From sequence record OZ346212.1: a stretch of 64,000 nucleotides of DNA. One strand, 5' to 3'. A model generated the notes under the pieces. The model did not search any database and had not been told where the DNA came from. It saw only the letters and a program-made list of their open reading frames with translations. A program made the position numbers and the translations under genes. The first letter of the stretch is position 1. The number at the start of each line of letters is the position of its first letter. The DNA comes from a phage. Positions 15,370 to 33,520 of the stretch are shown here, in pieces.

Positions 15370-15374
15370 GGCTC

Positions 15375-16741: not shown

Positions 16742-16743
16742 GA

Positions 16744-17435: not shown

Positions 17436-17451
17436 GGCTCTCTCCTTTTTG

Positions 17452-17688: not shown

Positions 17689-17689
17689 A

Positions 17690-18216: not shown

Positions 18217-18479
18217 TATTGTTCCTCCACCATAACTTCGCCAATAATTTCTATGCAGGCATCCATTTCTGTAACAACCAAACTGTGAGGTAGTTCTACA
18301 AACACCTTTCTGAACAGGTCAAATACCCCAACATATATGTTTGCAGGATGTGATTTTACAACAAGTGCTGTATTCACATCCCCAAGTTCATCAACAAACA
18401 TCACCACAGTGCCTGGAGCTACTGAGGACAGATACTTCTTAGTTTTACGGTTTGATGCAAATTTTAACTCTGTTGCCAT
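18216..18479 (-). CDS. small protein, member 1 of tandem paralog array (87 aa)
   Basis: SD GAGGAGG; PGTVVMFVDELGD...VTEMDACIEIIGE. Confidence 0.65.
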   Translation of the reverse strand: MATELKFASNRKTKKYLSSVAPGTVVMFVDELGDVNTALVVKSHPANIYVGVFDLFRKVFVELPHSLVVTEMDACIEIIGEVMVEEQ

Positions 18480-18494
18480 AAATAACCTCCTCTC

Positions 18495-19955
18495 TTACTT
18501 AGCGTACTCGATTAATTCCACAGTTTTACCAAAGCTCGGGATATAATTTTTATTATACCCCTCAGTGAGGACCCATAGAGTATCGTACTTTTTCCACTTG
18601 TTGTCAACAACCTTTTGTTCAAAGTTATGCTCAAAGTATAGGTCGGTCAGGACGATGACATCTTTTGCATTAGGTATGTTGGCATCCAGATACTCGAACA
18701 CGCAAGCAGCTGTTGTGCCCCATGTTGAGTGGACCTCATAGTTGATCATCTCGTCTATGTTGCCGCGAGTGTATACTTTAACCTCTCCAACCTCAGTTGA
18801 CCAACAGAACATTGTAACCTTAAACTCTTTATACAGATTGCACAATCCGGTGATTTCATTGAACATTTTCTTTAAAGTTCTTTGAGAGATCGAGCCAGAA
18901 ACGTCTAAAGCCACCACAATATCTATAGTGTTTTCCGGATTACGACCAGGAACAATAACGTGCTGGTTCTTGTTTATAGCCCCAACTTTTCGCATTGTGC
19001 TGGTCAAAGACCCAGATCGGCGACCAGGTTTTCTGTAGGTCAGTTCGGCCTTTCTTTTAGACAACATACGTTGCTTAATGATGTCTATATAGTTGATTAC
19101 AGGCTTACCTCTGTTCTTGACAAACTCACGCACCGCCTCAGGGCAACGGCCTCCGGACGCTTGCATTGCTGCCTCCAGCATATCACCAGAGTCCTGCATG
19201 GCCTGATCTTTATCAGATTGGCTGATTACAGGTTGTGGCTGATCATACCCCATAGCCTTTCCAAGATTATCACTGGTGCCACCGTTCCCACTCATGTGAT
19301 CATCGGTTTGTCGCTTATCACTTTGAGAGTTCTCACCTTTACCGTTCTTACTTTTACCGTTATTCTGATCTCTTTGCTTATCAAGAACTGCATAAACGTT
19401 CTCAGCAATCCATCCATGAAACTTCATGTCGCAGTAGCAGCTGGCTAAGAAGCCAAAAGGCTTACCTTTCATGAACGTAGTGCTTTTCCCCTTCGGGAAG
19501 AAAACACAAGGGGGTTTGCTAAAGTCAACCACAAGGCCTGTGTTGATAACGTGATCACAAGCAATATTGAACAGTTCCGGCTCAAAGCTTTTACCACGGA
19601 CTAGGTGATCACAGATAATATGCCCCACCTCATGTGACAGAAGGAAGGCCACCTCTTTCACAGATTTTGGGGAATAGAAAACTTCAGCCATCTCAAACTG
19701 CTCGTCAGTTAGAGAAGCCTTAAGAATAGCCTTGCGCTCATCAGCCAATCCCATAATGAACTCAGGACTGTAATAGATGCGTTTATGGTCGGTTGCCATG
19801 GTGGAGCACCATGTGTGGTTTTCTACGAACTGCAACCCTGACAGTAGTGTGCCATAAAACGGCAGCTTTTCAAGGAGATACATACGTGCAGCCTGCAACA
19901 TTCTCAGGGCATCATCTTTCTGCGAGGCAATGATTTCTGAACTTCTGCTATCCAT
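18495..19955 (-). CDS. metallopeptidase-like / von Willebrand factor A domain protein (about 486 aa)
   Basis: HExxH zinc-metallopeptidase-like motif (HEVGHIICDH) in N-terminal half; MIDAS-type VWA motif (VVALDVSGS) in C-terminal half; start set to ATG 19955 (SD GGAG) because ATG 19976 lies in the loop of a hairpin. Confidence 0.7.
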   Translation of the reverse strand: MDSRSSEIIASQKDDALRMLQAARMYLLEKLPFYGTLLSGLQFVENHTWCSTMATDHKRIYYSPEFIMGLADERKAILKASLTDEQFEMAEVFYSPKSVKEVAFLLSHEVGHIICDHLVRGKSFEPELFNIACDHVINTGLVVDFSKPPCVFFPKGKSTTFMKGKPFGFLASCYCDMKFHGWIAENVYAVLDKQRDQNNGKSKNGKGENSQSDKRQTDDHMSGNGGTSDNLGKAMGYDQPQPVISQSDKDQAMQDSGDMLEAAMQASGGRCPEAVREFVKNRGKPVINYIDIIKQRMLSKRKAELTYRKPGRRSGSLTSTMRKVGAINKNQHVIVPGRNPENTIDIVVALDVSGSISQRTLKKMFNEITGLCNLYKEFKVTMFCWSTEVGEVKVYTRGNIDEMINYEVHSTWGTTAACVFEYLDANIPNAKDVIVLTDLYFEHNFEQKVVDNKWKKYDTLWVLTEGYNKNYIPSFGKTVELIEYAK

Positions 19956-19968
19956 TAAAACTCCAGAA

Positions 19969-19983
19969 GGGGCCATCGGCCCC
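19969..19983 (-). terminator. hairpin between - strand genes, possible terminator/attenuator
   Basis: GGGGCC-atc-GGCCCC, followed on the - strand by U-rich ttctggagtttta. Confidence 0.35.
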
Positions 19984-19988
19984 TGTCA

Positions 19989-21029
19989 TTATTTAACGTG
20001 TTTGAAAATACCTGCCAACTCGGTCATTGTCATGCGGGTGGTCTTCATAAGATCTGTCATAGCTTTCTCCATAATTGGAGATACTACCATAAAGTTTCCT
20101 TTAGTGAAACCTTTATTCCAGTCGGTCACCAACAGGGGTTTAAGTCCAGCTCCAAGACGTTCACCAGTTAAAGCACAGCATTTGCGAATATACGAACTCT
20201 TAAATTGGCTGAACGACAGATCAACTTTCATACCTACATCGTAGAACGTTTGACAATAGAAAGTGTAAGCTTTGGCAATCTCAACATCATCAGGTAGTGC
20301 AGGAACCTCTTCTGTAAGCTCCTCTTCGACCTCCTGAGTCTCTTTTTCCTCTTCATGCACCTGTTGCGTCATTTCTTCAATCTCTTCTGTGATAGGCTCG
20401 TTTACAATGTCGGAAATGTGCTTCTTGGGTGCACGATAAGTAACTTTAGACATCGGTAGCATATCTTCCTCCTCTTCTTCGTCAAAGAGTGCTAGTTTAT
20501 CCTCTTCCGTTCCATATTGCAAGATGAAATCTTCAAAAGTATAATCACCTTTCAATTTCTCCATACGCTCTTCGCTCAGGTGGAGCATCATCTGCTGGAC
20601 AATTTTTCGATCAGTTTCGTCTTTAATCAAGACTGCAGTCTTTTTATCTACCAGACAGTCCTTTAGAGAGTTGCATCTCAATCCCACCACACAACAGTTA
20701 TCAACCGCATAAGGACCTTCATCATCTATCCGCTCCAGAGATGGGTAGAAAGGATTCCCCAGCCCGTTTTCATCTGTGTGCATGTCAAAAGGTATAAGGG
20801 TATAGTCGCATACTCCATCTCCTAAAAGTTTTTTACCAAATAGGAGGTATTCTTCCCATGACAGGTCGAACTCTATATCTCGTTTCCGTGCGTTATTCTG
20901 TTTGCGTCTATATTTTTTGAGCAAGCGCTCTAACTCTTCTGGTGTATAATATTTTTCAAGATTCATGAGTCGTCTCTCGTGCTCTGTAAGTGAAGAAATC
21001 GTATCAATTGTCTCAACAGATGTCAACAT
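19989..21029 (-). CDS. hypothetical protein with two related Cys-containing domains and an acidic linker (346 aa)
   Basis: ATG 21029 preferred over TTG 21032; internal duplication (...PSLERIDDEGPYAVDNCCVVGLRCN... and ...CCALTGERL...NFMVVSP...); internal ATG sits in a 29-bp repeat shared with 22292..22320. Confidence 0.6.
   Translation of the reverse strand: MLTSVETIDTISSLTEHERRLMNLEKYYTPEELERLLKKYRRKQNNARKRDIEFDLSWEEYLLFGKKLLGDGVCDYTLIPFDMHTDENGLGNPFYPSLERIDDEGPYAVDNCCVVGLRCNSLKDCLVDKKTAVLIKDETDRKIVQQMMLHLSEERMEKLKGDYTFEDFILQYGTEEDKLALFDEEEEEDMLPMSKVTYRAPKKHISDIVNEPITEEIEEMTQQVHEEEKETQEVEEELTEEVPALPDDVEIAKAYTFYCQTFYDVGMKVDLSFSQFKSSYIRKCCALTGERLGAGLKPLLVTDWNKGFTKGNFMVVSPIMEKAMTDLMKTTRMTMTELAGIFKHVK
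20431..20459. repeat. 29-bp sequence identical (inverted) to 22292..22320, includes an ATG
   Basis: Reverse complement of 20431..20459 = TACCGATGTCTAAAGTTACTTATCGTGCA = 22292..22320. Confidence 0.8.
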
Positions 21030-21039
21030 CAAAAACGTG

Positions 21040-21068
21040 TTGACTTTACTCTAACTCCACAATATAGT
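21040..21068 (+). promoter_or_regulatory. sigma70-like promoter (TTGACT-N17-TATAGT)
   Basis: Hexamers at 21040 and 21063 in the divergent intergenic region upstream of 21109. Confidence 0.55.
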
Positions 21069-21108
21069 GCACCCATTCGAAAGAAAACTAACATAGGAGC
21101 ACTTACTT

Positions 21109-22008
21109 ATGGCAAATCTTAACAGTTTTAGTACGCGGTGGAAACAGGACATAACAACCAATCTTTCAGCTGGGGACATCCTTTCTGCAATTTACGAGGC
21201 TTTAGATGATAAAGCTACTTCAAAAGCGGTTTGTACCAACCCATTAATTCCTATAGTGATGAAGGTTATTGAGCGTAGATTGGTATCTGGGTCTGATAAG
21301 TGGACATATTTAGATAATGAAGGACACACCTATTCCAATGGGTATGTCGATATAAAAGTAGAATACGCGGTATCATACCGCCGGAGCGGTTCTGTAACTT
21401 TCAACTTCTCTGGAGGTTTTCGATCTCTGGCTACCTCACCTTTTGTTTCCTCAGAGGAGAAGTATGAGCTGCCATTTCTTTGGATGATGGCTAACGCGAC
21501 AGGAAAAACCCCCGTTAGCATCCGAGTAAAATACAACTACAACGGATCTAGTAAGATCTATGCCGAAAGTGTCTCAGCAAGTTTTTATTTTGTGATGGGG
21601 GATGGAATCCTCAAACATATAAAGATGTGCGATATGCATGATGTTATAAATGAAGTGACTGATAAGAATGTTCTAGTGAAAGACCTCAACAATTTTTATA
21701 CACCTGGAGACTATTACGTCAGCCGTCCACTGTGCATCTTTAATGCCGCACACCCTCTAGGTGAGTATTTGATCGCCAATAGCGATATTGCCAATAACCG
21801 CTTCGAGGTAGCAAGAGTTCAGAATGAGGTATTGACATCTTGCAAGAGCGGTGATAAGTTTACCGAAGAAGAGATGGGTGTTTTAGAAATGATGGGATAT
21901 AAGTGTAGCCTTTGGGTAGATGAGGTGTTTAATGATTGCATCTATGGACAGGATATTTACCCATTAAAGAAGTATACTGATACAAGTTTAATTTATGCGA
22001 GGGTTTGA
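21109..22008 (+). CDS. hypothetical protein (299 aa)
   Basis: ORF with SD AGGAG 9 nt upstream. Confidence 0.65.
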   Translation: MANLNSFSTRWKQDITTNLSAGDILSAIYEALDDKATSKAVCTNPLIPIVMKVIERRLVSGSDKWTYLDNEGHTYSNGYVDIKVEYAVSYRRSGSVTFNFSGGFRSLATSPFVSSEEKYELPFLWMMANATGKTPVSIRVKYNYNGSSKIYAESVSASFYFVMGDGILKHIKMCDMHDVINEVTDKNVLVKDLNNFYTPGDYYVSRPLCIFNAAHPLGEYLIANSDIANNRFEVARVQNEVLTSCKSGDKFTEEEMGVLEMMGYKCSLWVDEVFNDCIYGQDIYPLKKYTDTSLIYARV

Positions 22009-22283
22009 CTATGATGAAGGCATGTGGTAATGTATATTACGTCGGTGAACATGTTCAGGCAGACAGTGTGTGGAAATCTATTAAGTCCACCACTGACGAT
22101 GCCCTTCTGAGTGGACTATGTTTCCCCAATCCGGGAGACATCCTCCCTCATCCTGGAGATTTTGTTGTCAACAAGATGGACGGTTATACCGTGTGCCTGA
22201 TGGTTGAAAAAATCTTTTTAGACACTAGACACAATCACCGTCTTGTGTTAAAATTTCAAGAATGTAAAATGACAATTGCCTAA
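22005..22283 (+). CDS. hypothetical protein (92 aa)
   Basis: ORF overlapping upstream stop (ATGA), SD GAGGG. Confidence 0.6.
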   Translation: MTMMKACGNVYYVGEHVQADSVWKSIKSTTDDALLSGLCFPNPGDILPHPGDFVVNKMDGYTVCLMVEKIFLDTRHNHRLVLKFQECKMTIA

Positions 22284-22291
22284 GGAGACCT

Positions 22292-22320
22292 TACCGATGT
22301 CTAAAGTTACTTATCGTGCA
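22292..22320. repeat. 29-bp repeat copy spanning the start codon of gene 22297..22653
   Basis: Identical to the reverse complement of 20431..20459. Confidence 0.8.
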
Positions 22321-22653
22321 GCTATTTACTGCAATGAACACCCAATCAATAATGATGGTCACTGCCTTTTTAAAGAAAATCAATTGGGCTGTATTGTCCT
22401 CCCTGATGAAGGGGAAGGTTATCTGATTGCATTGACAGGGTTTGAACCTGAGGCTCTGGAAGCCAATCTGGACTACCTGGTAGAAGAGGGTGCTGCAGAC
22501 CTGGTTGCCAATGGCCTCTCCATAAGCCTTGACGAAGTAGAGCGCTTCATGGGCAATTACCGTGTAGTGCGTGAGTTTACTATCGAGGTGGAAACTCCCG
22601 AGTGGAGTAGCCATGAAACTAATGCCGAAGAAAAAGAAGAGGAGGTAGAATAA
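22297..22653 (+). CDS. hypothetical acidic protein (118 aa)
   Basis: ATG 22297 with SD AAGGAG at 22282 preferred over track start 22276; N-terminus MSKVTYRA. Confidence 0.6.
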   Translation: MSKVTYRAAIYCNEHPINNDGHCLFKENQLGCIVLPDEGEGYLIALTGFEPEALEANLDYLVEEGAADLVANGLSISLDEVERFMGNYRVVREFTIEVETPEWSSHETNAEEKEEEVE

Positions 22654-22910
22654 TGAAAGTGCAGATCTTGACTAATGCCGAGAAGATGTTTATTGAAGAT
22701 ACACCTTTTGAAGCTGGTGAGCTACAGTTCGTTTATTTTGTTGACTTAGATAAGGTGTTTCCTGCACTGAATCTAGGTTTGGATGAAGTTCCTCATAAGG
22801 TTTTGTGCCAAGTTGTTCGTGCCTTAGCGGCAGAGGGGGAGTTCCACACCCTTCAAGATGTCCAGACCTACGGGTATCTTGAACTACAACGAGAAGAAGA
22901 GGTGGACTGA
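22653..22910 (+). CDS. hypothetical protein (85 aa)
   Basis: SD GAGGAGG upstream, start overlaps previous stop. Confidence 0.6.
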   Translation: MKVQILTNAEKMFIEDTPFEAGELQFVYFVDLDKVFPALNLGLDEVPHKVLCQVVRALAAEGEFHTLQDVQTYGYLELQREEEVD

Positions 22911-22912
22911 TA

Positions 22913-23293
22913 ATGGCTCAGTGGAAGACGACAGTTGACCTTCATGATCAGTGGTTAGGACGCATCACTGAAGACGGGAAGCTAGTGGAGTGGGACAATA
23001 AGCATGTTAGCGAGTTGGCAAGTATTGTGGCTGGCAAGTTACGCTCCAAGTTCCCTGAACAACTGGATCCTGATAGTTCAAAGTTCGATCCTGAGTTGGA
23101 GGATGTTGTATACTACTTCGATACCGTGGATGACTACGATGCGTGGTTTGCAGCACGGGAGCTTTACCCACAAGGCTCTGCTATGCGCCAGATGGAAGAA
23201 GATTATCCTCCGTGTGAGCAATTCAATAGTGCAATGACTTGCCTCTATGATTGGGCAGATAAGAACCTTGTCTGGATTCGGACTGCATTTTAG
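22913..23293 (+). CDS. hypothetical protein (126 aa)
   Basis: ORF with SD GAGGTGG upstream. Confidence 0.6.
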   Translation: MAQWKTTVDLHDQWLGRITEDGKLVEWDNKHVSELASIVAGKLRSKFPEQLDPDSSKFDPELEDVVYYFDTVDDYDAWFAARELYPQGSAMRQMEEDYPPCEQFNSAMTCLYDWADKNLVWIRTAF

Positions 23294-23337
23294 TGGGCAG
23301 GAATGGCGGCAAGGATGCCGCTTAAGGAGTAGTAGAG

Positions 23338-23607
23338 ATGTTATACCAGCAATATGAACTTCGTGCAGAAAAAGAGTTAAATTTTGACAAAGATATTCAC
23401 AGATATTATTATGGGAAAGTTAGAGGGCAAGCAAGAAAGTGTACTCCAACACTCTTTTATGCCAGCAGACGACTAGCGCCAGAAGAGGCAACAGCAGAAA
23501 GGGTTGCGTACAACTGGAGAGTCACGTATGATATTGACAGATTCGATGTGATATCTGTTTTGGAAAACTTTGAAAACACTTACACACAAGTAGAGGACTT
23601 TTACTAA
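23338..23607 (+). CDS. hypothetical protein (89 aa)
   Basis: ORF with SD AAGGAG upstream. Confidence 0.6.
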   Translation: MLYQQYELRAEKELNFDKDIHRYYYGKVRGQARKCTPTLFYASRRLAPEEATAERVAYNWRVTYDIDRFDVISVLENFENTYTQVEDFY

Positions 23608-24791
23608 TGTCAAGAAACGTATTCGAAAGTGGTCAAATCACTGTCCGTGAGTTGCCAGCTATTATTCAGTTTGCCCAACGTCATAGCCGATCTGTCCTAA
23701 TTTTGGGACCAATGGGTGTGGGTAAAAGCCAGGTGATGAAGCAGATCGCTGATAATATGTTCGGTGAGCGAGATGACAACCTTGTTGACGTGCGACTGTC
23801 AGATAAAGATCCTGCCGACTTATCTGGGCTACCTATCCCTGTAGAAGCGGATGGAACTACACGTACAGTGTTTGCAATTCCAGAATTTTGGCCTGCGGAT
23901 CCTGACTGGAGCGGAATTATCTTTCTGGATGAGCTCACTCATGCAGATAACTACCTGCAAAAGGTTGCAATGCAAATTATGCTTGACCACAAGTGCGGCA
24001 CCTATGCATTCCCTAAGGGTTCTGTTTTTGTGGCTGCGGGTAACCGTTCTACAGATGGTGCGGTTCTTTCGGCGCTCGAAGCCCCTCTGGCTAACCGTTT
24101 TATCATTGTAGAGGTTACAAGCAATGCAGAGGTGTTTATTGAGGACTACGCATTCCTCAACGGGGTTCACTCCTCTGTAATTGGGTATCTGAAAAGAGTT
24201 CCATCAGCTATTGATAATTATGAGGCTATGGCTGAGATTAATTGTCCATCTTTTGCCACACCACGATCTTGGGTTGCTGCATCTGACATCTTGCACGATT
24301 TTGACAGCGGTATTATTTCTGACGCTATGGCCCGTGTTCTTCTGCAAGGTGCTATTGGTCACACTGCAGCGGTAGAGATCTGGACATACCACACCAAGAA
24401 ACGCAATTTACCGGAAATCGGTCGGATTATGGCAGGTGGCTGCAAAGAATACGTAGGCCCTAAGCAGCCAGACATTTTGTGGATTCTTGGATCTGAAGGT
24501 TGTATCGCTATTCGTAATATGATGGAAAATGCAAGTATCTCAGACGAAGATCTTGTCAGCTGTGTGGCAAACTTCCTCGATTTCCTTTGGGAAAACTTCA
24601 AGGACGAGAACCGAGATTTTGTATTCTCAGTCTTTATGGCGATGATGAAACCTAATGCCTTAGGAAATGCCTTGCTTATCGGTAAAGGGCGTGACAAGAT
24701 TGTTGCTCAGCTGATCAAAGCATACCCAAACCTGATGAAGATTGTAAAAGAGTTTGGTGAAGAGTTTAGCGCCATTTTGGCTAAAGCTTAA
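23607..24791 (+). CDS. MoxR-like AAA+ ATPase (394 aa)
   Basis: Walker A GPMGVGKS and Walker B IIFLDELTHA; size and layout typical of MoxR/AAA_5 ATPases. Confidence 0.75.
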   Translation: MSRNVFESGQITVRELPAIIQFAQRHSRSVLILGPMGVGKSQVMKQIADNMFGERDDNLVDVRLSDKDPADLSGLPIPVEADGTTRTVFAIPEFWPADPDWSGIIFLDELTHADNYLQKVAMQIMLDHKCGTYAFPKGSVFVAAGNRSTDGAVLSALEAPLANRFIIVEVTSNAEVFIEDYAFLNGVHSSVIGYLKRVPSAIDNYEAMAEINCPSFATPRSWVAASDILHDFDSGIISDAMARVLLQGAIGHTAAVEIWTYHTKKRNLPEIGRIMAGGCKEYVGPKQPDILWILGSEGCIAIRNMMENASISDEDLVSCVANFLDFLWENFKDENRDFVFSVFMAMMKPNALGNALLIGKGRDKIVAQLIKAYPNLMKIVKEFGEEFSAILAKA

Positions 24792-24801
24792 GGGGGGTTG
24801 T

Positions 24802-25182
24802 ATGGCTAAAGTAGGTAAGCGGGGAAACTACCTGGTGGTATTGACCGAGGAGCCGGAGAAGGAGTACGAATGCAGCTCCACTTGCGTGATCGATATCCGA
24901 GAAAAAGATGTAGATGAAATCTGGTTTAAAATATTGGACGCTTGCGATAGCAGTGATTATTTCTTCATTTATGTCAACGATAAGGCTGGATTCTTCCATG
25001 ACGACGGAGAGTTGCCGTATGAAATCTATGAACTTGTAGAGGCTTGCCATCGTGGAGATGCGGAGTTGTTTGGCCTACGGCTGAAAAGCGGTAAATTCTT
25101 CTATCAAGATGAGTGCATGAATCTTCATAACTTTGTAGAGGGAACTTGCAACGATGGAGAGATTTTGGCACACTACGATTAA
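24802..25182 (+). CDS. hypothetical protein (126 aa)
   Basis: ATG 24802 with SD GGGGGG preferred over track start 24754, which overlaps the upstream gene. Confidence 0.6.
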   Translation: MAKVGKRGNYLVVLTEEPEKEYECSSTCVIDIREKDVDEIWFKILDACDSSDYFFIYVNDKAGFFHDDGELPYEIYELVEACHRGDAELFGLRLKSGKFFYQDECMNLHNFVEGTCNDGEILAHYD

Positions 25183-25194
25183 TTTCTAAGACCT

Positions 25195-25222
25195 CCCCCG
25201 CTTCGGCGGGGATTTTCTATTT
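25195..25222 (+). terminator. rho-independent terminator
   Basis: CCCCGC-ttcg-GCGGGG followed by ATTTTCTATTT. Confidence 0.65.
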
Positions 25223-25231
25223 GGAGTCATT

Positions 25232-25732
25232 GTGAAAATTAAGATCTTTGCTATTATTTTGAGCGCACTTTTATCGCTGCCTGTTGTTGCAGCACCAAAA
25301 CAAAAAGTATATCATACTTGCAAGCCCTCAGATACTAAGGAAAACATTCTGGCATGCAATATCTACAGGGAGGCTAGAGGGGATGGCACGATGGGTATGC
25401 TGGCATCAGGGTTTGCCACACTAAACAGGAAATCTCACCCCAAATACCCAGACACTATAAGAAAGATTGTCTACCAACCTAACCAGTTTTCGTGGACAAA
25501 CCACGGCAAAACTTTTAAGGTGACAGAAAAAGATTCATGGGATCACGCTAAAAGTCTTGCAAAGATGCTTCTAAAGGTCTATAATAACAACCATGTTGCA
25601 TACATGGCTATGGACATAACAGGTGGAGCAACACACTACCATACAACCAAAGTACGACCGAAATGGGCAAAAAAGATGCAGAGGACAGCTCAATTCGGGA
25701 GTCATATCTACTACAAGGAGCGCAATAAATGA
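25232..25732 (+). CDS. secreted SleB-like cell wall hydrolase (166 aa, GTG start)
   Basis: N-terminal signal-peptide-like segment (KIFAIILSALLSLPVVAAP); core NIYREARGDG...LNR...YPDTIRKIVYQPNQFSW matches the SleB-type lytic hydrolase pattern. Confidence 0.7.
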   Translation: MKIKIFAIILSALLSLPVVAAPKQKVYHTCKPSDTKENILACNIYREARGDGTMGMLASGFATLNRKSHPKYPDTIRKIVYQPNQFSWTNHGKTFKVTEKDSWDHAKSLAKMLLKVYNNNHVAYMAMDITGGATHYHTTKVRPKWAKKMQRTAQFGSHIYYKERNK

Positions 25733-26274
25733 TTGTAAACAGTAATGAAACTAAAGCAGTACTAACCGGAAATATGGAGGTCACCAGGGGCTCAATTTCT
25801 CTGAACAAAGAGACTTTTGGGCTAATCATTAAAGGGATTTACGAAGATAAGGTGCTGGCAAGCTGCCGTGAACCAATCTTCAATGCTGTGGACTCCCATG
25901 TTGAGTCTGGACGGGGTGATGTACCGATCATCATTCACTCTCCTACAGACCTTGAACCATACTTCTTTGTGCAGGACGTTGGATTGGGCATGTCGGAAGA
26001 GATGGTCCGCAACACTTTCATGAACCTCGGGGAGTCAACCAAGCGCAACAGCAACGCTCTGGTAGGTAATAAAGGTGTAGGTTCAAAGGCCCCGTTCAGC
26101 ATGGTGGACACTTTCGATGTGATCAGTGTGCCATACCAACACAACAGTGCTAAGTGCCGTGCATGCCGCTACGAAATAGTAGCAGCACCGGAATCACGCA
26201 AAGATGGCGATCCGATTGAATACGTAGTTGACCGTGATGGTAACATCATCGACATTATCTACGAGGAGGCGTAA
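25729..26274 (+). CDS. small GHKL-fold (HATPase_c-like) ATP-binding protein (181 aa)
   Basis: Bergerat-fold motifs in canonical order: N-box EPIFNAVDSH, G1 VQDVGLGM, G2 GNKGVGSKA; SD AAGGAG. Confidence 0.55.
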   Translation: MIVNSNETKAVLTGNMEVTRGSISLNKETFGLIIKGIYEDKVLASCREPIFNAVDSHVESGRGDVPIIIHSPTDLEPYFFVQDVGLGMSEEMVRNTFMNLGESTKRNSNALVGNKGVGSKAPFSMVDTFDVISVPYQHNSAKCRACRYEIVAAPESRKDGDPIEYVVDRDGNIIDIIYEEA

Positions 26275-27644
26275 TGGAAAAAGGGCAGTATGACGTAGGC
26301 ACAGATGCTGCCCTCATTGCAATCATGAGTGGTGAGAATGTCTTCGTTTCAGGACCTGCAGGTTGTGGGAAGACGTATCTCATCAACATGATCCAGTCAA
26401 TGTATGGAGACTCTTGCATAACGGTTGCCCCGACAGGGGTAGCCGCTTTAAACGTTAATGGAGCAACAGCACACCGAACATTCGATCTTGCAGCAGGTGT
26501 GAGCATGGAGTCGGACTGGACCGCAATAAGGGCAAAAACAGCAAAGCCTTTGAAAAGCAAGGCATTTACCATCCTAATTATCGATGAAATCTCTATGATC
26601 CGTGCTGATAAGTTTATAGAGATGGATAGGAAACTCCGCTTCCTTCGAAAAAATGACAAACCTTTCGGAGGCATACAGGTCATATTGTTTGGCGATTTTT
26701 ACCAGGCACCTCCTGTTGTCTCTTCTATGGAGAAGGAAGCCTACTTCAACTTCTACCATACGGACCTGTGTTGCTACACCGAATCTTGGAAAGAGCTTGA
26801 CCTCCACAACATAGCCCTAATAGATCAGTTCCGACAGGAGTCTATTCGATTTGCCACAATGCTTAACTGTGTTCGTGAGGGTCGTCGCATAAAAGAGGTT
26901 GTAGCAGAACTTAATGCTCGCTGTTACAAAGGTGGTGTACCAACAGATGCTCTCACAATTTGCGCCACCAACAAACAAGCAGAGGAAGTAAACAGAAGGT
27001 TCTATGATGCCATCAACGCCCCAGAGAAGGTATACACTGGTGAAATGAAGGGTAAGTTTCCCTCCACCCTGCCAGTTGAGCAGGAGATGAAGTTGAAAAT
27101 TGGCATGAAAGTTATGATAACCGCCAACGATGTTGACCCGACGCACAAAGTACCTTATTATGTTAACGGAACACGTGCCACAATTGTTAAATTTAAGAAC
27201 AAGGCGGTGGTGGTAGAGCTTGAAGATGGAACACAGGTTGACATAGAGCAGAGGTTGTGGGAGAATAACGAGTATAAGCCCTCTCAGAGATACAACATTG
27301 CAGAAAGGAAGATGGAGAAGTTTATAGAGAGGGTAGTGATTGGGTCATACAAGCAACTTCCTCTGAAATCTGGGTACGCCGTAACATCTCATAAAAGTCA
27401 AGGACTTACGCTAGATTGTTACAACCTAGACCTTGGAAAGAACGGAGCTTTCTCTCCTGGGATGACGTATGTCGCTTTGAGTAGAGTTAAGACAATACAA
27501 GGAATAAACTTGTTGCGTCCCCTAAGAGAAGTTGACATTATTGTTGACCCGCGAGTAGTAGAGTTTTACAATACAACATTCCCTGACTTAGACAAAATTG
27601 TCAGGAAAGATTTTGAAACCAGAGCAGAAGAGGGGGACGTATGA
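26274..27644 (+). CDS. Dda/Pif1/RecD-like SF1 DNA helicase (456 aa)
   Basis: Walker A GPAGCGKT, motif II IIDEISM, ...ILFGDFYQAPPV..., C-terminal ...SHKSQGLT... Confidence 0.85.
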   Translation: MEKGQYDVGTDAALIAIMSGENVFVSGPAGCGKTYLINMIQSMYGDSCITVAPTGVAALNVNGATAHRTFDLAAGVSMESDWTAIRAKTAKPLKSKAFTILIIDEISMIRADKFIEMDRKLRFLRKNDKPFGGIQVILFGDFYQAPPVVSSMEKEAYFNFYHTDLCCYTESWKELDLHNIALIDQFRQESIRFATMLNCVREGRRIKEVVAELNARCYKGGVPTDALTICATNKQAEEVNRRFYDAINAPEKVYTGEMKGKFPSTLPVEQEMKLKIGMKVMITANDVDPTHKVPYYVNGTRATIVKFKNKAVVVELEDGTQVDIEQRLWENNEYKPSQRYNIAERKMEKFIERVVIGSYKQLPLKSGYAVTSHKSQGLTLDCYNLDLGKNGAFSPGMTYVALSRVKTIQGINLLRPLREVDIIVDPRVVEFYNTTFPDLDKIVRKDFETRAEEGDV

Positions 27645-27982
27645 GTTTGTGGAGAAATATCGTTAACTACGTGTGTGGCAATCCGACTCCTGAAGAGAAG
27701 GATGTTGTGATTCACGATTTTACTAAAAGATCTCGTGAAAAAGATCTACTGCTAACAAAGGTGACTGATAAAGATCCTGCAGTAGGGGACTGGGCAGGTT
27801 TTGCGTTTACATCGGACAAATACACCTTTAACAAAGGTGACTACCTTGTTGTGGATTTTAACGAAGACATTGAGGGTGCTGAACCTTACTATCAAACCCT
27901 TATTGTTGCAGGGTGTGTTAATCTCTCTGCAGGTATGCACAGTTTGATTCTTTTTGAGCTTGACTCTGAAGACCTTGAGTAG
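27641..27982 (+). CDS. hypothetical protein (113 aa)
   Basis: ORF overlapping upstream stop, SD GAGGGGG. Confidence 0.6.
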   Translation: MSLWRNIVNYVCGNPTPEEKDVVIHDFTKRSREKDLLLTKVTDKDPAVGDWAGFAFTSDKYTFNKGDYLVVDFNEDIEGAEPYYQTLIVAGCVNLSAGMHSLILFELDSEDLE

Positions 27983-28043
27983 TAAGATGTGAGTATAAAG
28001 GGGAGGCACTCCTCCCCACAAAAACTAAGGAGAGCACCAAACG

Positions 28044-29369
28044 ATGAGTAAAACCAAATTAGAACTAACCTGGATAGGTAAAAACGAGCGCAAAAAGTTA
28101 GAGCCGCACATTTTGTTAGAAGATTCTAGCAAGTCTTACCACAGCCAGAAAGTGACCGAAAACGATATTTTTGATAATAAACTGATTTTTGGAGATAACT
28201 TATTAGCATTGAAGGCGCTAGAGCAAGAGTATGCAGGCAAAGTGAAGTGTGTTTACATAGACCCGCCATTCAATACCGGGAGGGCTTTTGAGCACTACGA
28301 TGATAGCCTGGAGCATTCCATTTGGCTGGGCTTAATGAGGGATAGGTTAGAAATAATTCGTAATCTTCTAAGTGATGATGGGGTAATATTCGTTCACTTA
28401 GATGATTGCGAAATGGCGTATTTAAAAGTTTTGATGGACGAGATTTTTGGTCGTGCAAATCAGTTAAATACCATATCGATGACCACAAATTCCCCTTCGG
28501 GATTTAAGGCAACAGGAGCCACAGTTTTCTCCACAGCAAACTTTTTGCTTGTATATGCAAAAGATCGCACCCAGAAACCGCTTAATAAAATCTATATACC
28601 TAAAGGGTACGATACAGGATATAACAAATACCTATTAAACCCGGATGACCATTATAAAAATTGGACGTGGTGCAGTATTGCCGATGCGTTTGCAAAGGCC
28701 AATGGCTATAAGGATGCAAAAGAAGCCAAGAAAAAACTGCCTGACACATTCGATGATGAATTAGCACAATTCGCAATTGATAATGCAGAACGTGTATTTC
28801 AATCTGTTGCAATTGGTGGTGGTGCTAAAATAAAGAGAAAAGAAACTATCGAGAAGTCAAAGAAAGATAGGGATAAGGTTTATGTACATCCAAATGAGGA
28901 TGTTGAAGGATTTTATATCGCAAATGGTAGGCAAATGGTCTTTTACTCCAATAGGCTTTTGGAAATTGACGGTGAGATGCAACCTGCGGAACTAATAACT
29001 GATGTTTGGACAGACATTAGTTGGAATGGAATAGCAAATGAAGGCGGCGTTAGTTTCAAAAATGGGAAAAAACCAGAAGCGCTTTTGAAGCGGATTTTCG
29101 AAATGTGTACGCGAGAAGGCGATTTGGTATTGGATTCATTCGGTGGTTCGGGAACTACTGCTGCTGTAGCTCACAAGATGAAAAGACGTTGGATCTCAAT
29201 CGAGCTAGGTGATCATTGTCATACCCATATTATTCCGCGCTTAGAAAAAGTGATCGATGGCGAAGATCAAGGTGGTATTTCTAAGTCTGTAAGCTGGCAA
29301 GGTGGTGGTGGCTTCCGTTATTACAAACTCACCCCGGCCTTAGTTGCGAAAGATAAGTCTGATCAATAA
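28044..29369 (+). CDS. DNA methyltransferase, N6-adenine/N4-cytosine class, beta-type motif order (441 aa)
   Basis: Catalytic motif IV IDPPFNTG precedes AdoMet motif I LDSFGGSGTT; SD AAGGAGAG. Confidence 0.8.
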   Translation: MSKTKLELTWIGKNERKKLEPHILLEDSSKSYHSQKVTENDIFDNKLIFGDNLLALKALEQEYAGKVKCVYIDPPFNTGRAFEHYDDSLEHSIWLGLMRDRLEIIRNLLSDDGVIFVHLDDCEMAYLKVLMDEIFGRANQLNTISMTTNSPSGFKATGATVFSTANFLLVYAKDRTQKPLNKIYIPKGYDTGYNKYLLNPDDHYKNWTWCSIADAFAKANGYKDAKEAKKKLPDTFDDELAQFAIDNAERVFQSVAIGGGAKIKRKETIEKSKKDRDKVYVHPNEDVEGFYIANGRQMVFYSNRLLEIDGEMQPAELITDVWTDISWNGIANEGGVSFKNGKKPEALLKRIFEMCTREGDLVLDSFGGSGTTAAVAHKMKRRWISIELGDHCHTHIIPRLEKVIDGEDQGGISKSVSWQGGGGFRYYKLTPALVAKDKSDQ

Positions 29370-29382
29370 AGAGTACAATCAA

Positions 29383-29688
29383 ATGATGAAACGTTATAAA
29401 CCATACACTTTTGAAATCGATTTCGAACTTGACGATATGTTCACTGTGGAAGCTCAGGCAGTTGTCCAGTTGCCAGACCCAGAGTGTCGTGATTCTGATG
29501 TTGACTATTATGGATTTAGACAGATCACTGATGTGCATGTTTACCACAACGGTGAAGAGGTGGACTTCCACCAATTGCCAAACGATATGCGCCACTCAAT
29601 TTACAAACGTGCAGCCCGTGAACTAGAGTCCTATCTGGATGCAGCGACGACAGCAGCTGCATTTGCTGAAGAAGTGGGAGGTTTCTGA
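29383..29688 (+). CDS. hypothetical protein (101 aa; track start 29344 is TTG overlapping MTase gene)
   Basis: First in-frame ATG after the MTase stop. Confidence 0.5.
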   Translation: MMKRYKPYTFEIDFELDDMFTVEAQAVVQLPDPECRDSDVDYYGFRQITDVHVYHNGEEVDFHQLPNDMRHSIYKRAARELESYLDAATTAAAFAEEVGGF

Positions 29689-30083
29689 TGATTACAGGTG
29701 TGAAGATTATCCAATACCACTTAACCAAATTGGAAGATGCTGAAAAAGAGCTTGCAGAAGTTCTAAATAGTGGATATACTTTGCTATCATGCGCCTGCTC
29801 AGACACCTACGCTGTGTGGACACTTATCCGGAAGGAGGAGCCTGCAGGGATCTTGGTGCCAAACCCTAAGATTATCAGTGAAGTGGATGACTGCTCTCAG
29901 GACGGCCTGTCAGAAGACTGGGAAGCATGGGAAGGTGGTGAAAACCCTGCACCAGGTAAGTGGGTAAAATACAAACTACGTAGCGGTGCACAGCACGCTG
30001 GATACTCTGATAACCTGGACTGGAGTCATTCTTCACCGGAATCATTGGTAAGTGCATATGATATCGTTGCTTTTCAGGAATAA
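29688..30083 (+). CDS. hypothetical protein (131 aa)
   Basis: SD GGGAGG, start overlaps upstream stop. Confidence 0.6.
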   Translation: MITGVKIIQYHLTKLEDAEKELAEVLNSGYTLLSCACSDTYAVWTLIRKEEPAGILVPNPKIISEVDDCSQDGLSEDWEAWEGGENPAPGKWVKYKLRSGAQHAGYSDNLDWSHSSPESLVSAYDIVAFQE

Positions 30084-30095
30084 GGAGAGAGTGTT

Positions 30096-30578
30096 ATGTC
30101 AGATTTTATGTGGAAAGTAGGTTATGCCTCTCCTGAAATGTGCGAGGCTTGCTTTGTAAAAATAGGCCGCGAGGATATTGACAAAGTGATCTTTAAGTTT
30201 CGTGATGTATCTGTGATCGGCAACCGAGTGCTTAAGCACTTAAAGAATCTGAAGCTCACCAAAAAGAAGTTCTTCGGACTTTTCGAAGAGAAAGTTGATG
30301 CTTGGACCCATTGCATTCAGGAAGCTAAATCTCACTACAGTGCTATCGTTACCCCAGAACGGGTAGCCAAGATGGAAGGATTCATCAACAGCACAGAGTT
30401 TGAGTGCCTAAAGGCTGCCCTTAATAGTTATCCAAAGTGCCTCAAACACCTTGACAAGTATGTAGAAAAGGATGGGGAAATGTATCTCACCCTGGACGCA
30501 TATTATGAGATGCAAGAAATTTTAAATTTAGATTTGACATTGGTATCCACCGAGTATACAATAGGTATCCGGGTTTAA
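30096..30578 (+). CDS. hypothetical protein (160 aa)
   Basis: SD AAGGAGAGAG upstream. Confidence 0.65.
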   Translation: MSDFMWKVGYASPEMCEACFVKIGREDIDKVIFKFRDVSVIGNRVLKHLKNLKLTKKKFFGLFEEKVDAWTHCIQEAKSHYSAIVTPERVAKMEGFINSTEFECLKAALNSYPKCLKHLDKYVEKDGEMYLTLDAYYEMQEILNLDLTLVSTEYTIGIRV

Positions 30579-30584
30579 CACTAG

Positions 30585-30611
30585 GCCCTGCCCGAAAGGG
30601 TGGGGCTTTTT
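30585..30611 (+). terminator. rho-independent terminator with GAAA tetraloop
   Basis: GCCCTGCCC-gaaa-GGGTGGGGC followed by TTTTT; near-identical hairpin recurs at 41573. Confidence 0.7.
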
Positions 30612-30629
30612 GCATTAGGAGACAGCAAA

Positions 30630-31394
30630 TTGAAATTTATCTACAAAGAACACTACCACAAAGGTGTTGTGTGGAGTCTATTTGACGGGTCTGGTGGTGC
30701 AGTCATTGACTGGGCAAAAGCTGGGTACCTGTGCCTGTGCTTTAATGCAGAAGGCGCTGATCACGGCAGTTATGCAGAGGTTATAACCGATCATCCCAAC
30801 ATTCACTATGTGGATTATTGGATTGACCCATGGTTCCCTCAGGAAACTTTTTGCATGTACCCAGCTCCAGACTTTATTCTTGCATTTCCTCCGTGCACGC
30901 ATTTAGCGGTATCAGGTGCTGCACATTTTAAGAAAAAGCTGGCTAAGGACCCTCTGATCCAAATTAATGCCGTAAAGGATGCTCGGGTTGCGGAAGAGCT
31001 GGGAGAGATTTACGATTGCCCGTGGCATGTAGAGAATCCTGTGGGTGTTATGTCCACACTGTGGCGCAAACCTGATTACCGTTTTCATCCTTCTGACTAT
31101 GGTGGGTATTTACCGGAGGATGATGTAAACCCTTGGTTTCCTGAATTTATAGCTCCACGTGATGCCTATCCAAAAATAACTTGCGGCTGGATAGGTAATG
31201 GATTTATAATCCCGCCCACAAAACCTGTCCCGCAAATAGTTGACGCGGTTAGCGGGTATTCTATGCAACACGCCAAGCTGGGTGGAAAGAGTGCAAGAAC
31301 GAAGATGATTCGAAGTCTCACACCACGTGGCTGGGCAAAAGCCGTATTCTTAGCAAACGAGCCTGTAGTAAGGAGCAGAATTAATGGGAAGTAA
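30630..31394 (+). CDS. DNA (cytosine-5)-methyltransferase-like protein (254 aa, TTG start)
   Basis: Motif I LFDGSGG, motif IV FPPCTH (PC dipeptide, Q replaced by T), motif VI VENPVG; TTG start at 30630 with SD AGGAGA because track ATG 30600 lies in the terminator hairpin. Confidence 0.5.
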   Translation: MKFIYKEHYHKGVVWSLFDGSGGAVIDWAKAGYLCLCFNAEGADHGSYAEVITDHPNIHYVDYWIDPWFPQETFCMYPAPDFILAFPPCTHLAVSGAAHFKKKLAKDPLIQINAVKDARVAEELGEIYDCPWHVENPVGVMSTLWRKPDYRFHPSDYGGYLPEDDVNPWFPEFIAPRDAYPKITCGWIGNGFIIPPTKPVPQIVDAVSGYSMQHAKLGGKSARTKMIRSLTPRGWAKAVFLANEPVVRSRINGK

Positions 31395-33462
31395 ATTTAT
31401 GGCATCTGCATACAACCGTTTCGGTGAGCCAAACCCGAAAGCAACTAAGTATAAAAGTGGGGGGAGTGTGAAACGAGACTATCGTGATGAAAAAGAAGTT
31501 GAAACTGTAGAGACTGTTTTAGAAAATACTAAAATTGTCCCTGTCCCACAACAAAATATCGGTCTGATGGCTGCACAATATTTTGGTGTGCGATCAGCAT
31601 TGTCCCAAGAAGACGGTGTGACAGTCACTGCAACATATTTCCCATATTACGACCGCTACGGAAATCTGTCTGGTTTCAAAAAGCGTGACTGGACTATTCC
31701 TAAAGAGCAAAGGGGCCATTTCTCCGTTGTTGGCATCGTAAAGGCCAACTCCCAGATGTTTGGTCAAAAGCTGTGTGCATCTTCCAACAACCGTAAGCAG
31801 ATTAATGTTTGTGAGGGAGAAGGTGATGTTATTGCAGCATGGCAGGCTGCATATCAAATACAAGTAAAAGGGATTCTCACCAACGCTAAAGCCCCGGCAA
31901 AGGTGAAACAGTGGGCTAAAGAGGTCCAGGACGGGATCGATGCAGTTATCAACGGGGGTGATTTGGCAGGAAAACCCTGCCTGCCTTTTGTTGGAATTAA
32001 CTGTGGATGTGCAAACGCAGTAGATACTTTTGCAAACAATGAGAAATTTATCCGTAGCTACGGAACAGTGGTCCTTGCAATGGACAACGATGCGGCTAAC
32101 GAGGTAGAGAAGCAAAAACACGTTATCAAAGGTGTTGAAGCCACACATAATATTGCAGCATTTTTGATGGCTGACAACGTTTACCACGTGGAATATCCTG
32201 GCGAGGTAAACGACCCTGATGGTGTAAAAGATATCCGTGACATGCTGAAGGCTAAAAAGCTGGAAGATATTGTAAACATGTTCCGGCATCCTGTTAAGTA
32301 TGTGCCTGATGCTGTGTCGGATTTAGAAGACTTCTCTATCGAATCTTTGCGGAAAAAGACTTCCAACGGGGTAGATATCAGCGCAGAGTTTCCAAAACTG
32401 CAAAAAATGCTAAAAGGCTTGCACAAAGGGACACTCGTAATGCTTACAGGTCCATCAGGAGGTGGTAAAACAACTGTAGCCAAAAAACTGGAACACTGTA
32501 TTGCAAGATACCTAATGGACCCGACATGTCCAAAGGCCGATGACTACGAAGAGGATGATCGTCTATGCATGATTCATCTTGAGGAGGACCCAGAGGAAGC
32601 AATTAACTCCTTGTATGCAAACCAGTTAGGGTTTGATGTTAAAGAGTTTGTTGAAGATCCTAGCCAGTTTTTAACTGATCAAGAACATGCAGAGATTCAC
32701 CAATCATGGGCAAAAGCTGGAAAAATCAAAGTGTTCAAACATTTCGGGTCTATTCCAGTGGACGAGTTGATTACCAAGCTTAAGCAAATGGTCTGCCTGT
32801 ACCATTGTCGCTATATTGTGCTGGATCACCTGTCTATGGTAATTTCAGGGCTTAATGTTAAAGATGAGCGAAAAGAACTGGACATGGCTATGACTCAGCT
32901 GGCTGCGTTTTGTAAGCAGTTTAACGTGTTTATCTTGGTGATCGCTCACCTCAAACGTACAGAGATTGTGCCTCCTAAGGACAAGGATGGTAACCCATTA
33001 CCTTTCTGGTATCCTGTGCGAAAAGAGAATTTGCGAGGATCGGCTGGGCTTGAACAGTTGAGTTGGGTAGTCATAGGTGTCGAGGCCGAAGAAATGGTGG
33101 ATCGTTCTCGTGGGCGTGTCCGTCTGGTAGGTCTTAAAAACCGTCCAGCAAAAACTTTAGGTATTGCTGACACTTTAGTTATGGACCCACATACAGGTAA
33201 GTTCCATGATGCCAGTAATTGGTACTGGGACAAAGAAATGCAGATGTTTACAGACGGAGAAGGTGGGGAGGTTGTTTGGAGACCTCAGGCCATGTTTGAG
33301 GACCAAGAGCATGCAGTTGTAGAAACACCTATGGGCAAGGTTGTAGCCGATAAGGTTGTAACTCCTACTATTAAGCCTGTTGACACGCAGGAAGACCTTC
33401 AGTACGATGATCCATCCTCTGATCCGGTCCCCGGTTTTGAGGATGATGAAACACCTTTTTAA
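31384..33462 (+). CDS. T7 gp4-type primase-helicase (692 aa)
   Basis: N-terminal TOPRIM-like acidic motifs (CEGEGD, AMDNDAAN); C-terminal DnaB-like helicase Walker A GPSGGGKT and Walker B IVLDHL. Confidence 0.8.
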   Translation: MGSKFMASAYNRFGEPNPKATKYKSGGSVKRDYRDEKEVETVETVLENTKIVPVPQQNIGLMAAQYFGVRSALSQEDGVTVTATYFPYYDRYGNLSGFKKRDWTIPKEQRGHFSVVGIVKANSQMFGQKLCASSNNRKQINVCEGEGDVIAAWQAAYQIQVKGILTNAKAPAKVKQWAKEVQDGIDAVINGGDLAGKPCLPFVGINCGCANAVDTFANNEKFIRSYGTVVLAMDNDAANEVEKQKHVIKGVEATHNIAAFLMADNVYHVEYPGEVNDPDGVKDIRDMLKAKKLEDIVNMFRHPVKYVPDAVSDLEDFSIESLRKKTSNGVDISAEFPKLQKMLKGLHKGTLVMLTGPSGGGKTTVAKKLEHCIARYLMDPTCPKADDYEEDDRLCMIHLEEDPEEAINSLYANQLGFDVKEFVEDPSQFLTDQEHAEIHQSWAKAGKIKVFKHFGSIPVDELITKLKQMVCLYHCRYIVLDHLSMVISGLNVKDERKELDMAMTQLAAFCKQFNVFILVIAHLKRTEIVPPKDKDGNPLPFWYPVRKENLRGSAGLEQLSWVVIGVEAEEMVDRSRGRVRLVGLKNRPAKTLGIADTLVMDPHTGKFHDASNWYWDKEMQMFTDGEGGEVVWRPQAMFEDQEHAVVETPMGKVVADKVVTPTIKPVDTQEDLQYDDPSSDPVPGFEDDETPF

Positions 33463-33520
33463 TGTTTAACAAAGAGTGGGAGGGGTAGTACAACCGCCTC
33501 CCCTTTAAGGAGAACTGTAT

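Follow-up and report, generated by a model that had tools for sequence, protein, structure and literature searches.

An in-frame rIIA-rIIB deletion fusion upstream of the Pif1/Dda-like helicase gene of an rV5-like Escherichia phage

The closest described counterpart of the locus reported here is the T4 r1589 deletion, a rIIA-rIIB gene fusion that reportedly goes back to Benzer and Champe and was used by Crick et al. in 1961. It keeps most of rIIB, and B function is retained. Proteins of the rIIA family have an N-terminal GHKL ATPase followed by a variable C-terminal region (PMC7824862). A T4 stock carrying a sequenced, r1589-like rIIA-rIIB fusion was found to be RexAB-sensitive (PMC8594841), and in the Vequintavirus EdH4 the knock-down of rIIA or rIIB was harmless in the absence of Rex and lowered plating on RexAB (PMC11879866).

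We analysed a window of 64,000 nt (OZ346212.1), DNA of an rV5-like Escherichia phage (Vequintavirus), in which a first-pass annotation had described a 181-aa open reading frame as a minimal GHKL module paired with a helicase and had found no obvious counterpart for it. The ORF exists as described (Table 1), and very probably it is the scar of a deletion in rIIA and rIIB, its product most likely inactive and the phage an rII-null mutant. As in T4 r1589, a deletion over the rIIA/rIIB boundary places the N-terminal part of rIIA in frame with the C-terminal part of rIIB. It differs from r1589 in that only 134/660 rIIA and 47/401 rIIB residues survive, in the subfamily of the phage (Vequintavirinae), and in its origin, a natural deletion that recurs at a single 31-nt homology and does not come from a laboratory mutant collection.

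Table 1. Features of the rII locus in the window
Feature	Position	Strand	Basis
SleB-type cell-wall hydrolase gene	25232..25732	+	PF07486 Hydrolase_2, E=2e-19
In-frame rIIA'-'rIIB fusion ORF, 181 aa, ATG start	25729..26274	+	Sequence comparison with naswa; PHROG profiles
rIIA-derived part, residues 1-134	25729..26130	+	Identity to naswa rIIA; PHROG 612
rIIA/rIIB resemblance stretch, 31 nt	26101..26131	.	Overlap of two BLAST arms; alignment
AGTGTGC, 7-nt exact microhomology holding the crossover of this genome	26125..26131	.	Alignment
rIIB-derived part, residues 135-181 (rIIB 355-401), and stop codon	26131..26274	+	Identity to naswa rIIB
GAGGAGG, Shine-Dalgarno site of the helicase gene	26263..26269	+	Read from sequence; function inferred
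Pif1/Dda-like SF1B helicase gene, intact, 456 aa	26274..27644	+	Pfam and PHROG profiles

A 2,653-bp deletion joins rIIA to rIIB

Compared by BLAST with the related phage naswa (MN850595), the window aligned in two arms, one 100% identical over 1332 nt (1332/1332 up to the junction) and the other, comprising the rIIB 3′ end and the helicase gene, 99.65% identical over 2000 nt. The arms lie 2,653 bp apart in naswa and overlap by 31 nt in the window; the missing segment is MN850595.1 75756..78408. At the naswa locus (positions in L001) rIIA occupies 2976..4958 and rIIB 4969..6174, with the helicase start at 6174, and the ORF is small because rIIA residues 135-660 and rIIB residues 1-354 were lost with the deletion. 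At the protein level the ORF matches naswa rIIA without a difference over its first 134 aa, and naswa rIIB likewise over its last 49 aa, S133 and V134 being common to both proteins. The reading frames of the two genes differ by one base, which the length of the deletion makes good (2653 mod 3 is 1); a single deletion across the gene boundary thus joined the rIIA N-terminus in frame to the rIIB C-terminus. Profile searches gave the same composition: PHROG 612 (RIIA) matched the ORF at profile positions 1-134 only, of 725 (E=1e-58), the RIIB PHROG profiles matched weakly at residues 125-153, and PF26926 (Phage_T4_rIIB) is recorded on P0031, a near-identical equivalent fusion.

Within the 31-nt overlap rIIA and rIIB are identical at 24/31 nt in the same codon phase (MVDTFDVISV versus MVDPADVVSV). 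No other pair of 31-mers from the two genes matches better, and the level is reached in 1/200 codon shuffles; from this alignment we regard the stretch as the substrate of the deletion. BLASTP of rIIA against rIIB was not significant (E=0.98), and we therefore make no claim of paralogy. In L006, which belongs to another genus, the two conserved rIIA and rIIB motifs have fewer nucleotides in common. The proposed mechanism starts from an ancestral genome with hydrolase, rIIA, rIIB and helicase in the order usual for Vequintavirus. Recombination, or slippage during replication, would then have taken out the 2,653 bp through an exchange between two short stretches of imperfect match, rIIA codons 125-134 and rIIB codons 345-354. 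Because the codon phase of the two stretches agrees, the product, rIIA 1-134 followed by rIIB 355-401, would automatically be in frame.

The fusion ORF occupies the genomic position of rIIA, with its start on the stop of the SleB-type hydrolase gene and the rIIB remnant next, within the same ORF. The hydrolase TGA and the fusion ATG overlap as ATGA (25729-25732), just as hydrolase and rIIA do in relatives; the arrangement in naswa is identical (L001, hydrolase 2479..2979, rIIA from 2976). At the other end the fusion TAA (26272-26274) and the helicase ATG (26274) have one base in common, TAATG, which bears out the overlap noted in the first-pass annotation. Its assignment of the downstream ORF to the SF1 helicases also held, the protein being of the SF1B type (PF05970 PIF1, E=1.5e-32; PHROG 325 'Dda-like helicase', E=1e-111) and full length, with the length and position of naswa_97. 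The helicase is the gene directly 3′ of rIIB in every relative examined, another genus included, and there too the rIIB stop overlaps the helicase start (L004, 6986..8221 and 8221..9528). The Shine-Dalgarno site sits within the 3′ end that the fusion ORF inherited from rIIB. On this comparison the overlap and the Shine-Dalgarno site are the native rIIB 3′ end and the normal rIIB/helicase junction, so the supposed pairing of a GHKL module with a helicase reduces to the ordinary coupling of rIIB. Promoter and terminator scans gave counts not above those of shuffled sequence. As the fusion retains the rIIA start over the hydrolase stop as well as the rIIB end with the Shine-Dalgarno site and TAATG, its translation probably continues and the helicase is probably expressed as before.

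The truncated GHKL domain

The Bergerat motifs pointed out earlier contain residues that are invariant in a 30-member rIIA alignment: E48 and N52 in the N-box, D83, G85 and G87 in G1, and G113, G116 and G118 in G2. In an HMM search Pfam HATPase_c_3 matched residues 50-153 of the ORF with E=9.7e-8 and 32.6 bits (cut-off 25 bits), and the GHKL call is thus better than chance. In both its motifs and its slot after the SleB-type hydrolase the fragment resembles the rIIA family (PHROG 612), its residues 1-134 being those of Vequintavirus rIIA; unlike that family it has lost 80% of the protein, so that the ATPase domain breaks off before its end and the Hsp90-like middle and C-terminal domains are missing altogether. 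The full rIIA architecture, of about 660 aa or more with a GHKL domain and Hsp90-like middle and C-terminal regions, is therefore absent, and of the 31 rIIA homologues returned, 29 were 659-873 aa long and one was a 407-aa fragment. Of the rIIB family (PF26926), whose domain covers about 400 aa, the ORF has kept the final 47 residues and the stop codon that overlaps the helicase start, and the first 354 residues are gone.

The cut falls inside the ATPase fold. The rIIA-derived part contains the N-box, G1, the ATP lid with G2 and the first post-lid β-strand of the GHKL domain. In the AlphaFold model of full-length rIIA (pLDDT 83) the lid is followed by strands E128-135, E138-147, E150-160 and E166-172 and by helix H175-189, and a piece stopping at residue 134 would, by this parent model, lack the last three β-strands and the closing helix. 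Conservation continues beyond the cut in the rIIA alignment, with G166 invariant and G137, Y142, G149, T161 and E163 nearly so; the invariant residues G166, Y246, R275 and E276 are all missing from the fusion. Judged by the parent model, the fragment does not form the complete α/β sandwich of a functional GHKL domain. The AlphaFold model of the fusion itself, built from a 10-sequence alignment, had a mean pLDDT of 39 and a pTM of 0.25 and was too poor to interpret.

The first-pass annotation had considered the ORF far too small for an Hsp90 homologue; the fold of its parent indicates that it is the stump of an Hsp90-like protein. The HSP90-family alignment of rIIA spans residues 47-184, Hsp90-like middle and C-terminal domains follow the GHKL domain in the rIIA model, and the whole model matches full-length Hsp90/TRAP1 structures with a Foldseek E of about 4e-16. 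A PDB sequence search with full-length rIIA returned marginal matches, with E of 0.07 or worse, and a fold search was needed to reveal the likeness. Relative to these GHKL chaperone ATPases, with which sequence identity is only 12-16%, the fragment corresponds to about the first two-thirds of the N-terminal nucleotide-binding domain and has no middle domain. In Hsp90 the middle domain supplies the catalytic arginine. The fusion protein keeps the ATP-binding motifs; missing are the remainder of the GHKL sheet, the Hsp90-like middle and C-terminal domains in full and 88% of rIIB. On the parent model it is most likely inactive and possibly misfolded.

From the EdH4 knock-downs and the T4 fusion mutant we predict that the phage is RexAB-sensitive and would grow on hosts without Rex-type exclusion; like phages with r1589-type fusions, it should be viable and is expected to have lost RexAB protection. 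The suggestion that the ORF might act in counter-defence is apt for its parents, the rII genes being a counter-defence module, and most likely fails for the locus here, which is broken by the deletion. For phage biology and phage therapy the isolate may accordingly be marked as an rII-null Vequintavirus, predicted to be sensitive to exclusion of the Rex type and perhaps to differ in the timing of lysis, and the truncated remnant should not be annotated as a new 'minimal GHKL ATPase-helicase module'.

Relatives and recurrence of the deletion

In 120/120 related GenBank records matching the region the order was hydrolase, rIIA (660 aa), rIIB (401 aa) and helicase. The two halves of the ORF were apart, and the junction absent, in all 120 of these phage records and in one phage-like 'plasmid' record. 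Megablast of the junction region gave no match in E. coli complete genomes, and among plasmids it gave one phage-like record with the locus intact. Neither the exact junction 37-mer and 26-mer nor a degenerate pattern for all three junction types described below was found in viral, genome or metagenome contig collections, and the exact 181-aa sequence was absent from a 15-billion-protein collection. The 90%-identity protein cluster held six further 181-aa fusions from independent assemblies of public read sets, on contigs of up to 133 kb. Three junction types occur among the fusions, ...TFDVISVPYQ, ...TFDVVSVPYQ and ...MVDPADVVSVPYQ. For the other fusions junction DNA came from L002 only, which encodes P0031 and has its crossover a few bases upstream of that in the window; the third type was read from protein sequences only. 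These six fusions with three different crossover points mark the deletion as recurrent.

Natural rV5-like phages thus lose rII repeatedly at one short homology. The spread of the deletion could be due to neutral loss in phages propagated on hosts without Rex, to an advantage of rapid lysis, or to escape from a defence that senses rII proteins. Unremarkable as a gene and of mild interest as a hot spot of deletion, the locus offers a natural analogue of T4 r1589 that could be used to measure microhomology-mediated deletion and rII selection outside T4.

Other readings of the fusion

The recurrence could be given a stronger meaning. In one form, which we consider unlikely, the 31-nt homology is a recurrent deletion switch that sheds rII, for defence escape or a gain in rapid lysis, and the in-frame 181-aa product might keep an activity such as nucleotide binding, a decoy function or the passage of ribosomes into the helicase gene. 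Somewhat more doubtful is the proposal that the fusion is itself a small protein under selection for a function, whether as a 'mini-rII' that binds ATP or acts as a dominant negative, or as a decoy, or that the deletion is an adaptive switch removing rII proteins sensed by a defence, for which the homology provides a built-in hot spot. That fusions with an open frame recur could mean selection for the product, at least three independent crossovers having led to the same 181-aa architecture in different genetic backgrounds with the ATP-binding motifs kept. A switch would also fit reports that RIIB triggers a bacterial gasdermin/CARD defence from which T6 escapes through rIIB loss (PMC10312443) and that T4 rIIA has a hypermutable contingency tract (bioRxiv 10.1101/2025.10.21.683753). 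However, homology in codon phase yields an in-frame fusion without selection, and the parent model has the GHKL fold cut mid-sheet. The differences between fusion variants match pre-existing rIIB alleles (P0039, P0040) and are uninformative on purifying selection, and the 120 phage records and the contig collections held no fusion.

An assembly or finishing artefact, with the locus intact in the phage and the junction arising from mis-joined contigs or reads, is very improbable. The region is prone to finishing errors, since in many GenBank records of Vequintavirus the linear sequence has been opened between the two genes, with rIIA at about position 1556 and rIIB at the far end. Yet the two genes share an exact match of only 7 nt here, much too little for an assembly graph to collapse on; they are joined exactly and in frame at their best homology, and like junctions occur at slightly different bases in independent assemblies of other runs. 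The motifs and the one-base overlap might suggest that the ORF is a true minimal GHKL ATPase, standing alone and evolved as a partner or regulator of the Pif1/Dda-like helicase. This is scarcely credible: in close relatives a 660-aa protein begins with the same 134 residues at 100% identity, the tail is rIIB, and the overlap belongs to rIIB in every relative examined.

A natural family of short rIIA N-terminal proteins was also considered. Short ORFs of 142-239 aa with the rIIA GHKL motifs, similar in this respect to the fusion, are found in related phages, for example Salmonella phage 40 (SP40_76), L004, L005 and L006; unlike in the fusion, in all three contigs examined the remainder of rIIA lies in another frame and rIIB is intact downstream. 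Such a family was rejected: by their sequences these split genes reflect frameshifts or sequencing errors and not deletions.

A very probable remnant of the rIIA/rIIB locus

The ORF, GHKL motifs and helicase overlap described in the first-pass annotation are all present. The ORF's ATG overlaps the TGA of the 166-aa gene upstream (ATGA), and its TAA overlaps the helicase ATG (TAATG). The GHKL assignment also holds: HATPase_c_3 scored above the Pfam threshold in the 181-aa protein (32.6 bits vs. a cut-off of 25, E=1e-7), and the N-box, G1 and G2 coincide with residues invariant in a 30-member rIIA alignment (E48, N52, D83, G85, G87, G113, G116, G118). The proposed pairing of a minimal GHKL module with a helicase did not withstand alignment with phage naswa (MN850595), a close relative with intact rIIA and rIIB, by which the ORF is very probably a remnant of this known locus, scarred by a deletion.

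Residues 1-134 of the ORF matched positions 1-134 of the 725-position RIIA profile (PHROG 612, E=1e-58), and the PHROG scan gave weak matches of residues 125-153 to RIIB profiles. The window comes from an rV5-like Escherichia phage (Vequintavirus). Over the first 25 kb of the window, identity to naswa is 99.8%; later parts show 95-99% identity to various relatives, and no identical record was found among the database records searched. One arm of the window (1332/1332 nt identical to naswa) ends within rIIA, and a second (1993/2000 nt) begins within rIIB; the two are separated by 2,653 bp in naswa but share 31 nt in the window. At the protein level, residues 1-134 are naswa rIIA 1-134 and residues 133-181 are rIIB 353-401, S133 and V134 being common to both. 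The fusion is in frame because the reading frames of rIIA and rIIB are offset by one base, and the deleted segment (MN850595.1 75756..78408), 2,653 nt long (3n+1), makes up for this. Both the stop/start overlap with the helicase gene and that gene's Shine-Dalgarno site belong to the original 3′ end of rIIB, and the rIIB/helicase overlap is found also in naswa and in a related genus (contig L004, 6986..8221 and 8221..9528).

Ahead of the hydrolase gene are a GC-rich hairpin leading into a T-run (25196..25211) and, immediately upstream of the gene, a promoter-like site (25230..25257), which together could mark the start of a hydrolase/rII remnant/helicase transcription unit. Counts of promoter- and terminator-type sites near 25196..25257 were no higher than in shuffled sequence.

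Features of the window, of naswa (segment L001), of the rIIA model and of the deletion junctions
Feature	Location	Length	Remarks
Fusion ORF, window	25729..26274, +	181 aa	in-frame rIIA/rIIB fusion
SleB-type cell-wall hydrolase, window	directly upstream of fusion ORF	166 aa	PF07486, E=2e-19
Pif1/Dda-like SF1B helicase, window	26274..27644, downstream	456 aa	PF05970, E=1.5e-32; PHROG 325, E=1e-111
Helicase Shine-Dalgarno site, window	26263..26269		GAGGAGG
Hydrolase, naswa	L001 2479..2979	166 aa
rIIA, naswa	L001 2976..4958	660 aa
rIIB, naswa	L001 4969..6174	401 aa
Helicase, naswa	L001 from 6174	456 aa
N-box helix, rIIA model	H41-59
Strands, rIIA model	E67-70, E78-82
Helix, rIIA model	H90-98
Lid, rIIA model	residues 99-117		low confidence
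Helix, rIIA model	H118-124
Four strands, rIIA model	E128-135, E138-147, E150-160, E166-172
Helix, rIIA model	H175-189
31-nt stretch, rIIA side			ATGGTGGACACTTTCGATGTGATCAGTGTGC; MVDTFDVISV
31-nt stretch, rIIB side			ATGGTTGACCCTGCGGATGTGGTTAGTGTGC; MVDPADVVSV
Junction type 1 (window, P0041, P0043, P0052)	crossover in AGTGTGC		...SMVDTFDVISVPYQ
Junction type 2 (P0031)	crossover in GATGTG		...SMVDTFDVVSVPYQ; DNA-based
Junction type 3 (P0045, P0053)	crossover in ATGGT		...SMVDPADVVSVPYQ; inferred from protein only

Truncation of rIIA and its expected consequences

Twenty-nine of the 31 rIIA homologues returned are 659-873 aa long, and one is a 407-aa fragment. The AlphaFold model of a full-length Vequintavirus rIIA (P0002, 99% identical to naswa rIIA; mean pLDDT 83) matched full-length Hsp90/TRAP1 structures (Foldseek E ~4e-16, 500-700 aligned columns) past the N-terminal GHKL domain, suggesting that the rIIA of relatives is built like Hsp90 from N-terminal, middle and C-terminal parts. 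The HSP90-family NCBIfam alignment of the parent rIIA covers residues 47-184. The rIIA part of the fusion ends at residue 134, keeping the GHKL motifs and lacking three of the four strands after the lid, the helix that closes the domain, the conserved residues G137, Y142, G149, T161, E163 and G166, the invariant Y246, R275 and E276, and all downstream domains. A direct model of the fusion reached a mean pLDDT of only 39. In Hsp90, GyrB and MutL, ATP hydrolysis depends on residues from the domain after the ATP-binding domain, and since the fusion has lost these, enzymatic activity would be very unlikely.

The rII genes form a counter-defence module that is needed only under certain conditions. 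Knocking down either rIIA or rIIB in the Vequintavirus EdH4 left growth without Rex unaffected and lowered plating on RexAB (PMC11879866), a T4 rIIA-rIIB fusion resembling the r1589 deletion is RexAB-sensitive (PMC8594841), and T6 escapes gasdermin/CARD defence through loss of rIIB (PMC10312443). Given these precedents, the window's phage is most plausibly an rII-null variant that remains viable. The deletion may owe its spread to neutral processes, to an advantage in lysis timing or to defence escape. The closest known thing to the 181-aa fusion is that of T4 r1589.

Origin and recurrence of the deletion

The crossover in the window lies within AGTGTGC (26125..26131), inside a 31-nt stretch (26101..26131) where rIIA and rIIB agree at 24 positions in identical codon phase. 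No other pair of 31-mers from the two genes matches as well, and 24/31 was reached in just one of 200 codon-shuffled rIIA/rIIB pairs; some rIIA alleles (Phage 203, ATT for ATC) extend the exact match to 9 nt. Overall homology between the two proteins was not detectable by BLASTP (E=0.98). The rIIB motif VDPAD[VI]VSVPY is kept in other genera, as is the rIIA motif, and in one of these genera (contig L006) the two stretches have fewer nucleotides in common. The deletion probably arose between the two stretches, by microhomology-mediated recombination or by slippage during replication.

Among related database records the deletion was absent, the halves lying apart in all 120 matching phage records and in one phage-like 'plasmid' record. 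The junction was not found in viral, genome and metagenome contig collections, nor the exact 181-aa protein in a 15-billion-sequence collection. A homology search did return a second 181-aa fusion, P0031 (97% identity), lying between hydrolase and helicase as in the window (28.7-kb contig, run ERR11457451), and its 90% cluster holds five further 181-aa fusions on contigs of up to 133 kb. Because the fusions show three junction types and carry differing rIIA and rIIB alleles, the deletion has occurred at the 31-nt hot spot at least three times, and this natural recurrence at a defined homology in Vequintaviruses is the sole new element here. The 6-9 nt of exact homology, far too short for assembly collapse, argues against the junction being an assembly artefact.

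Other short rIIA-N proteins (142-239 aa, including Salmonella phage 40 SP40_76) were set apart; two of them, examined on three contigs, derive from rIIA genes split by a frameshift, with rIIB and helicase intact downstream. In related-phage assemblies rIIA is often called as two ORFs (e.g. 202+460 aa, 239+431 aa) or as truncated products (split loci L004 5001..6986, L005 4456..6443 and L006 5001..7015; cluster members P0044, P0048, P0049, P0051 and P0054). Sequencing errors could account for these calls, as could genuine frameshift variation comparable to the hypermutable contingency tract reported for T4 rIIA (bioRxiv 10.1101/2025.10.21.683753).

Other features of the window

ARAGORN detected neither tRNA nor tmRNA genes in window 1..64000. 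In the DNA polymerase gene (region 35935..36786), an 842-bp insertion missing in naswa separates an 809-aa portion (33521..35950) from a 118-aa portion (36784..37140). The insertion gives a full-length match to the Rfam group I intron model (RF00028, 39 bits vs. a gathering score of 50, E=4e-8) and encodes an HNH homing endonuclease (36085..36591; PHROG 59, E=7e-38). Since several relatives are annotated 'DNA polymerase (x2)', presence of the intron appears variable within the genus.

Window 51532..53777 is rearranged relative to naswa (segments L007+L008, 54036..61078): some 3.6 kb (naswa segment 55471..59093) and a further stretch of about 1.1 kb have been lost or replaced, a 171-bp piece (53607..53777) aligns with naswa in reverse orientation, and identity falls to 94-96%. 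The pattern resembles that of a variable, mosaic stretch carrying small early genes.

Searches with window 24800..28100 and 1..25000 also returned 16-18 unannotated GenBank 'Campylobacter phage' records (host Campylobacter jejuni), ~97-98% identical to E. coli Vequintaviruses; such identity is odd for hosts so distant and suggests mislabelling or contamination.
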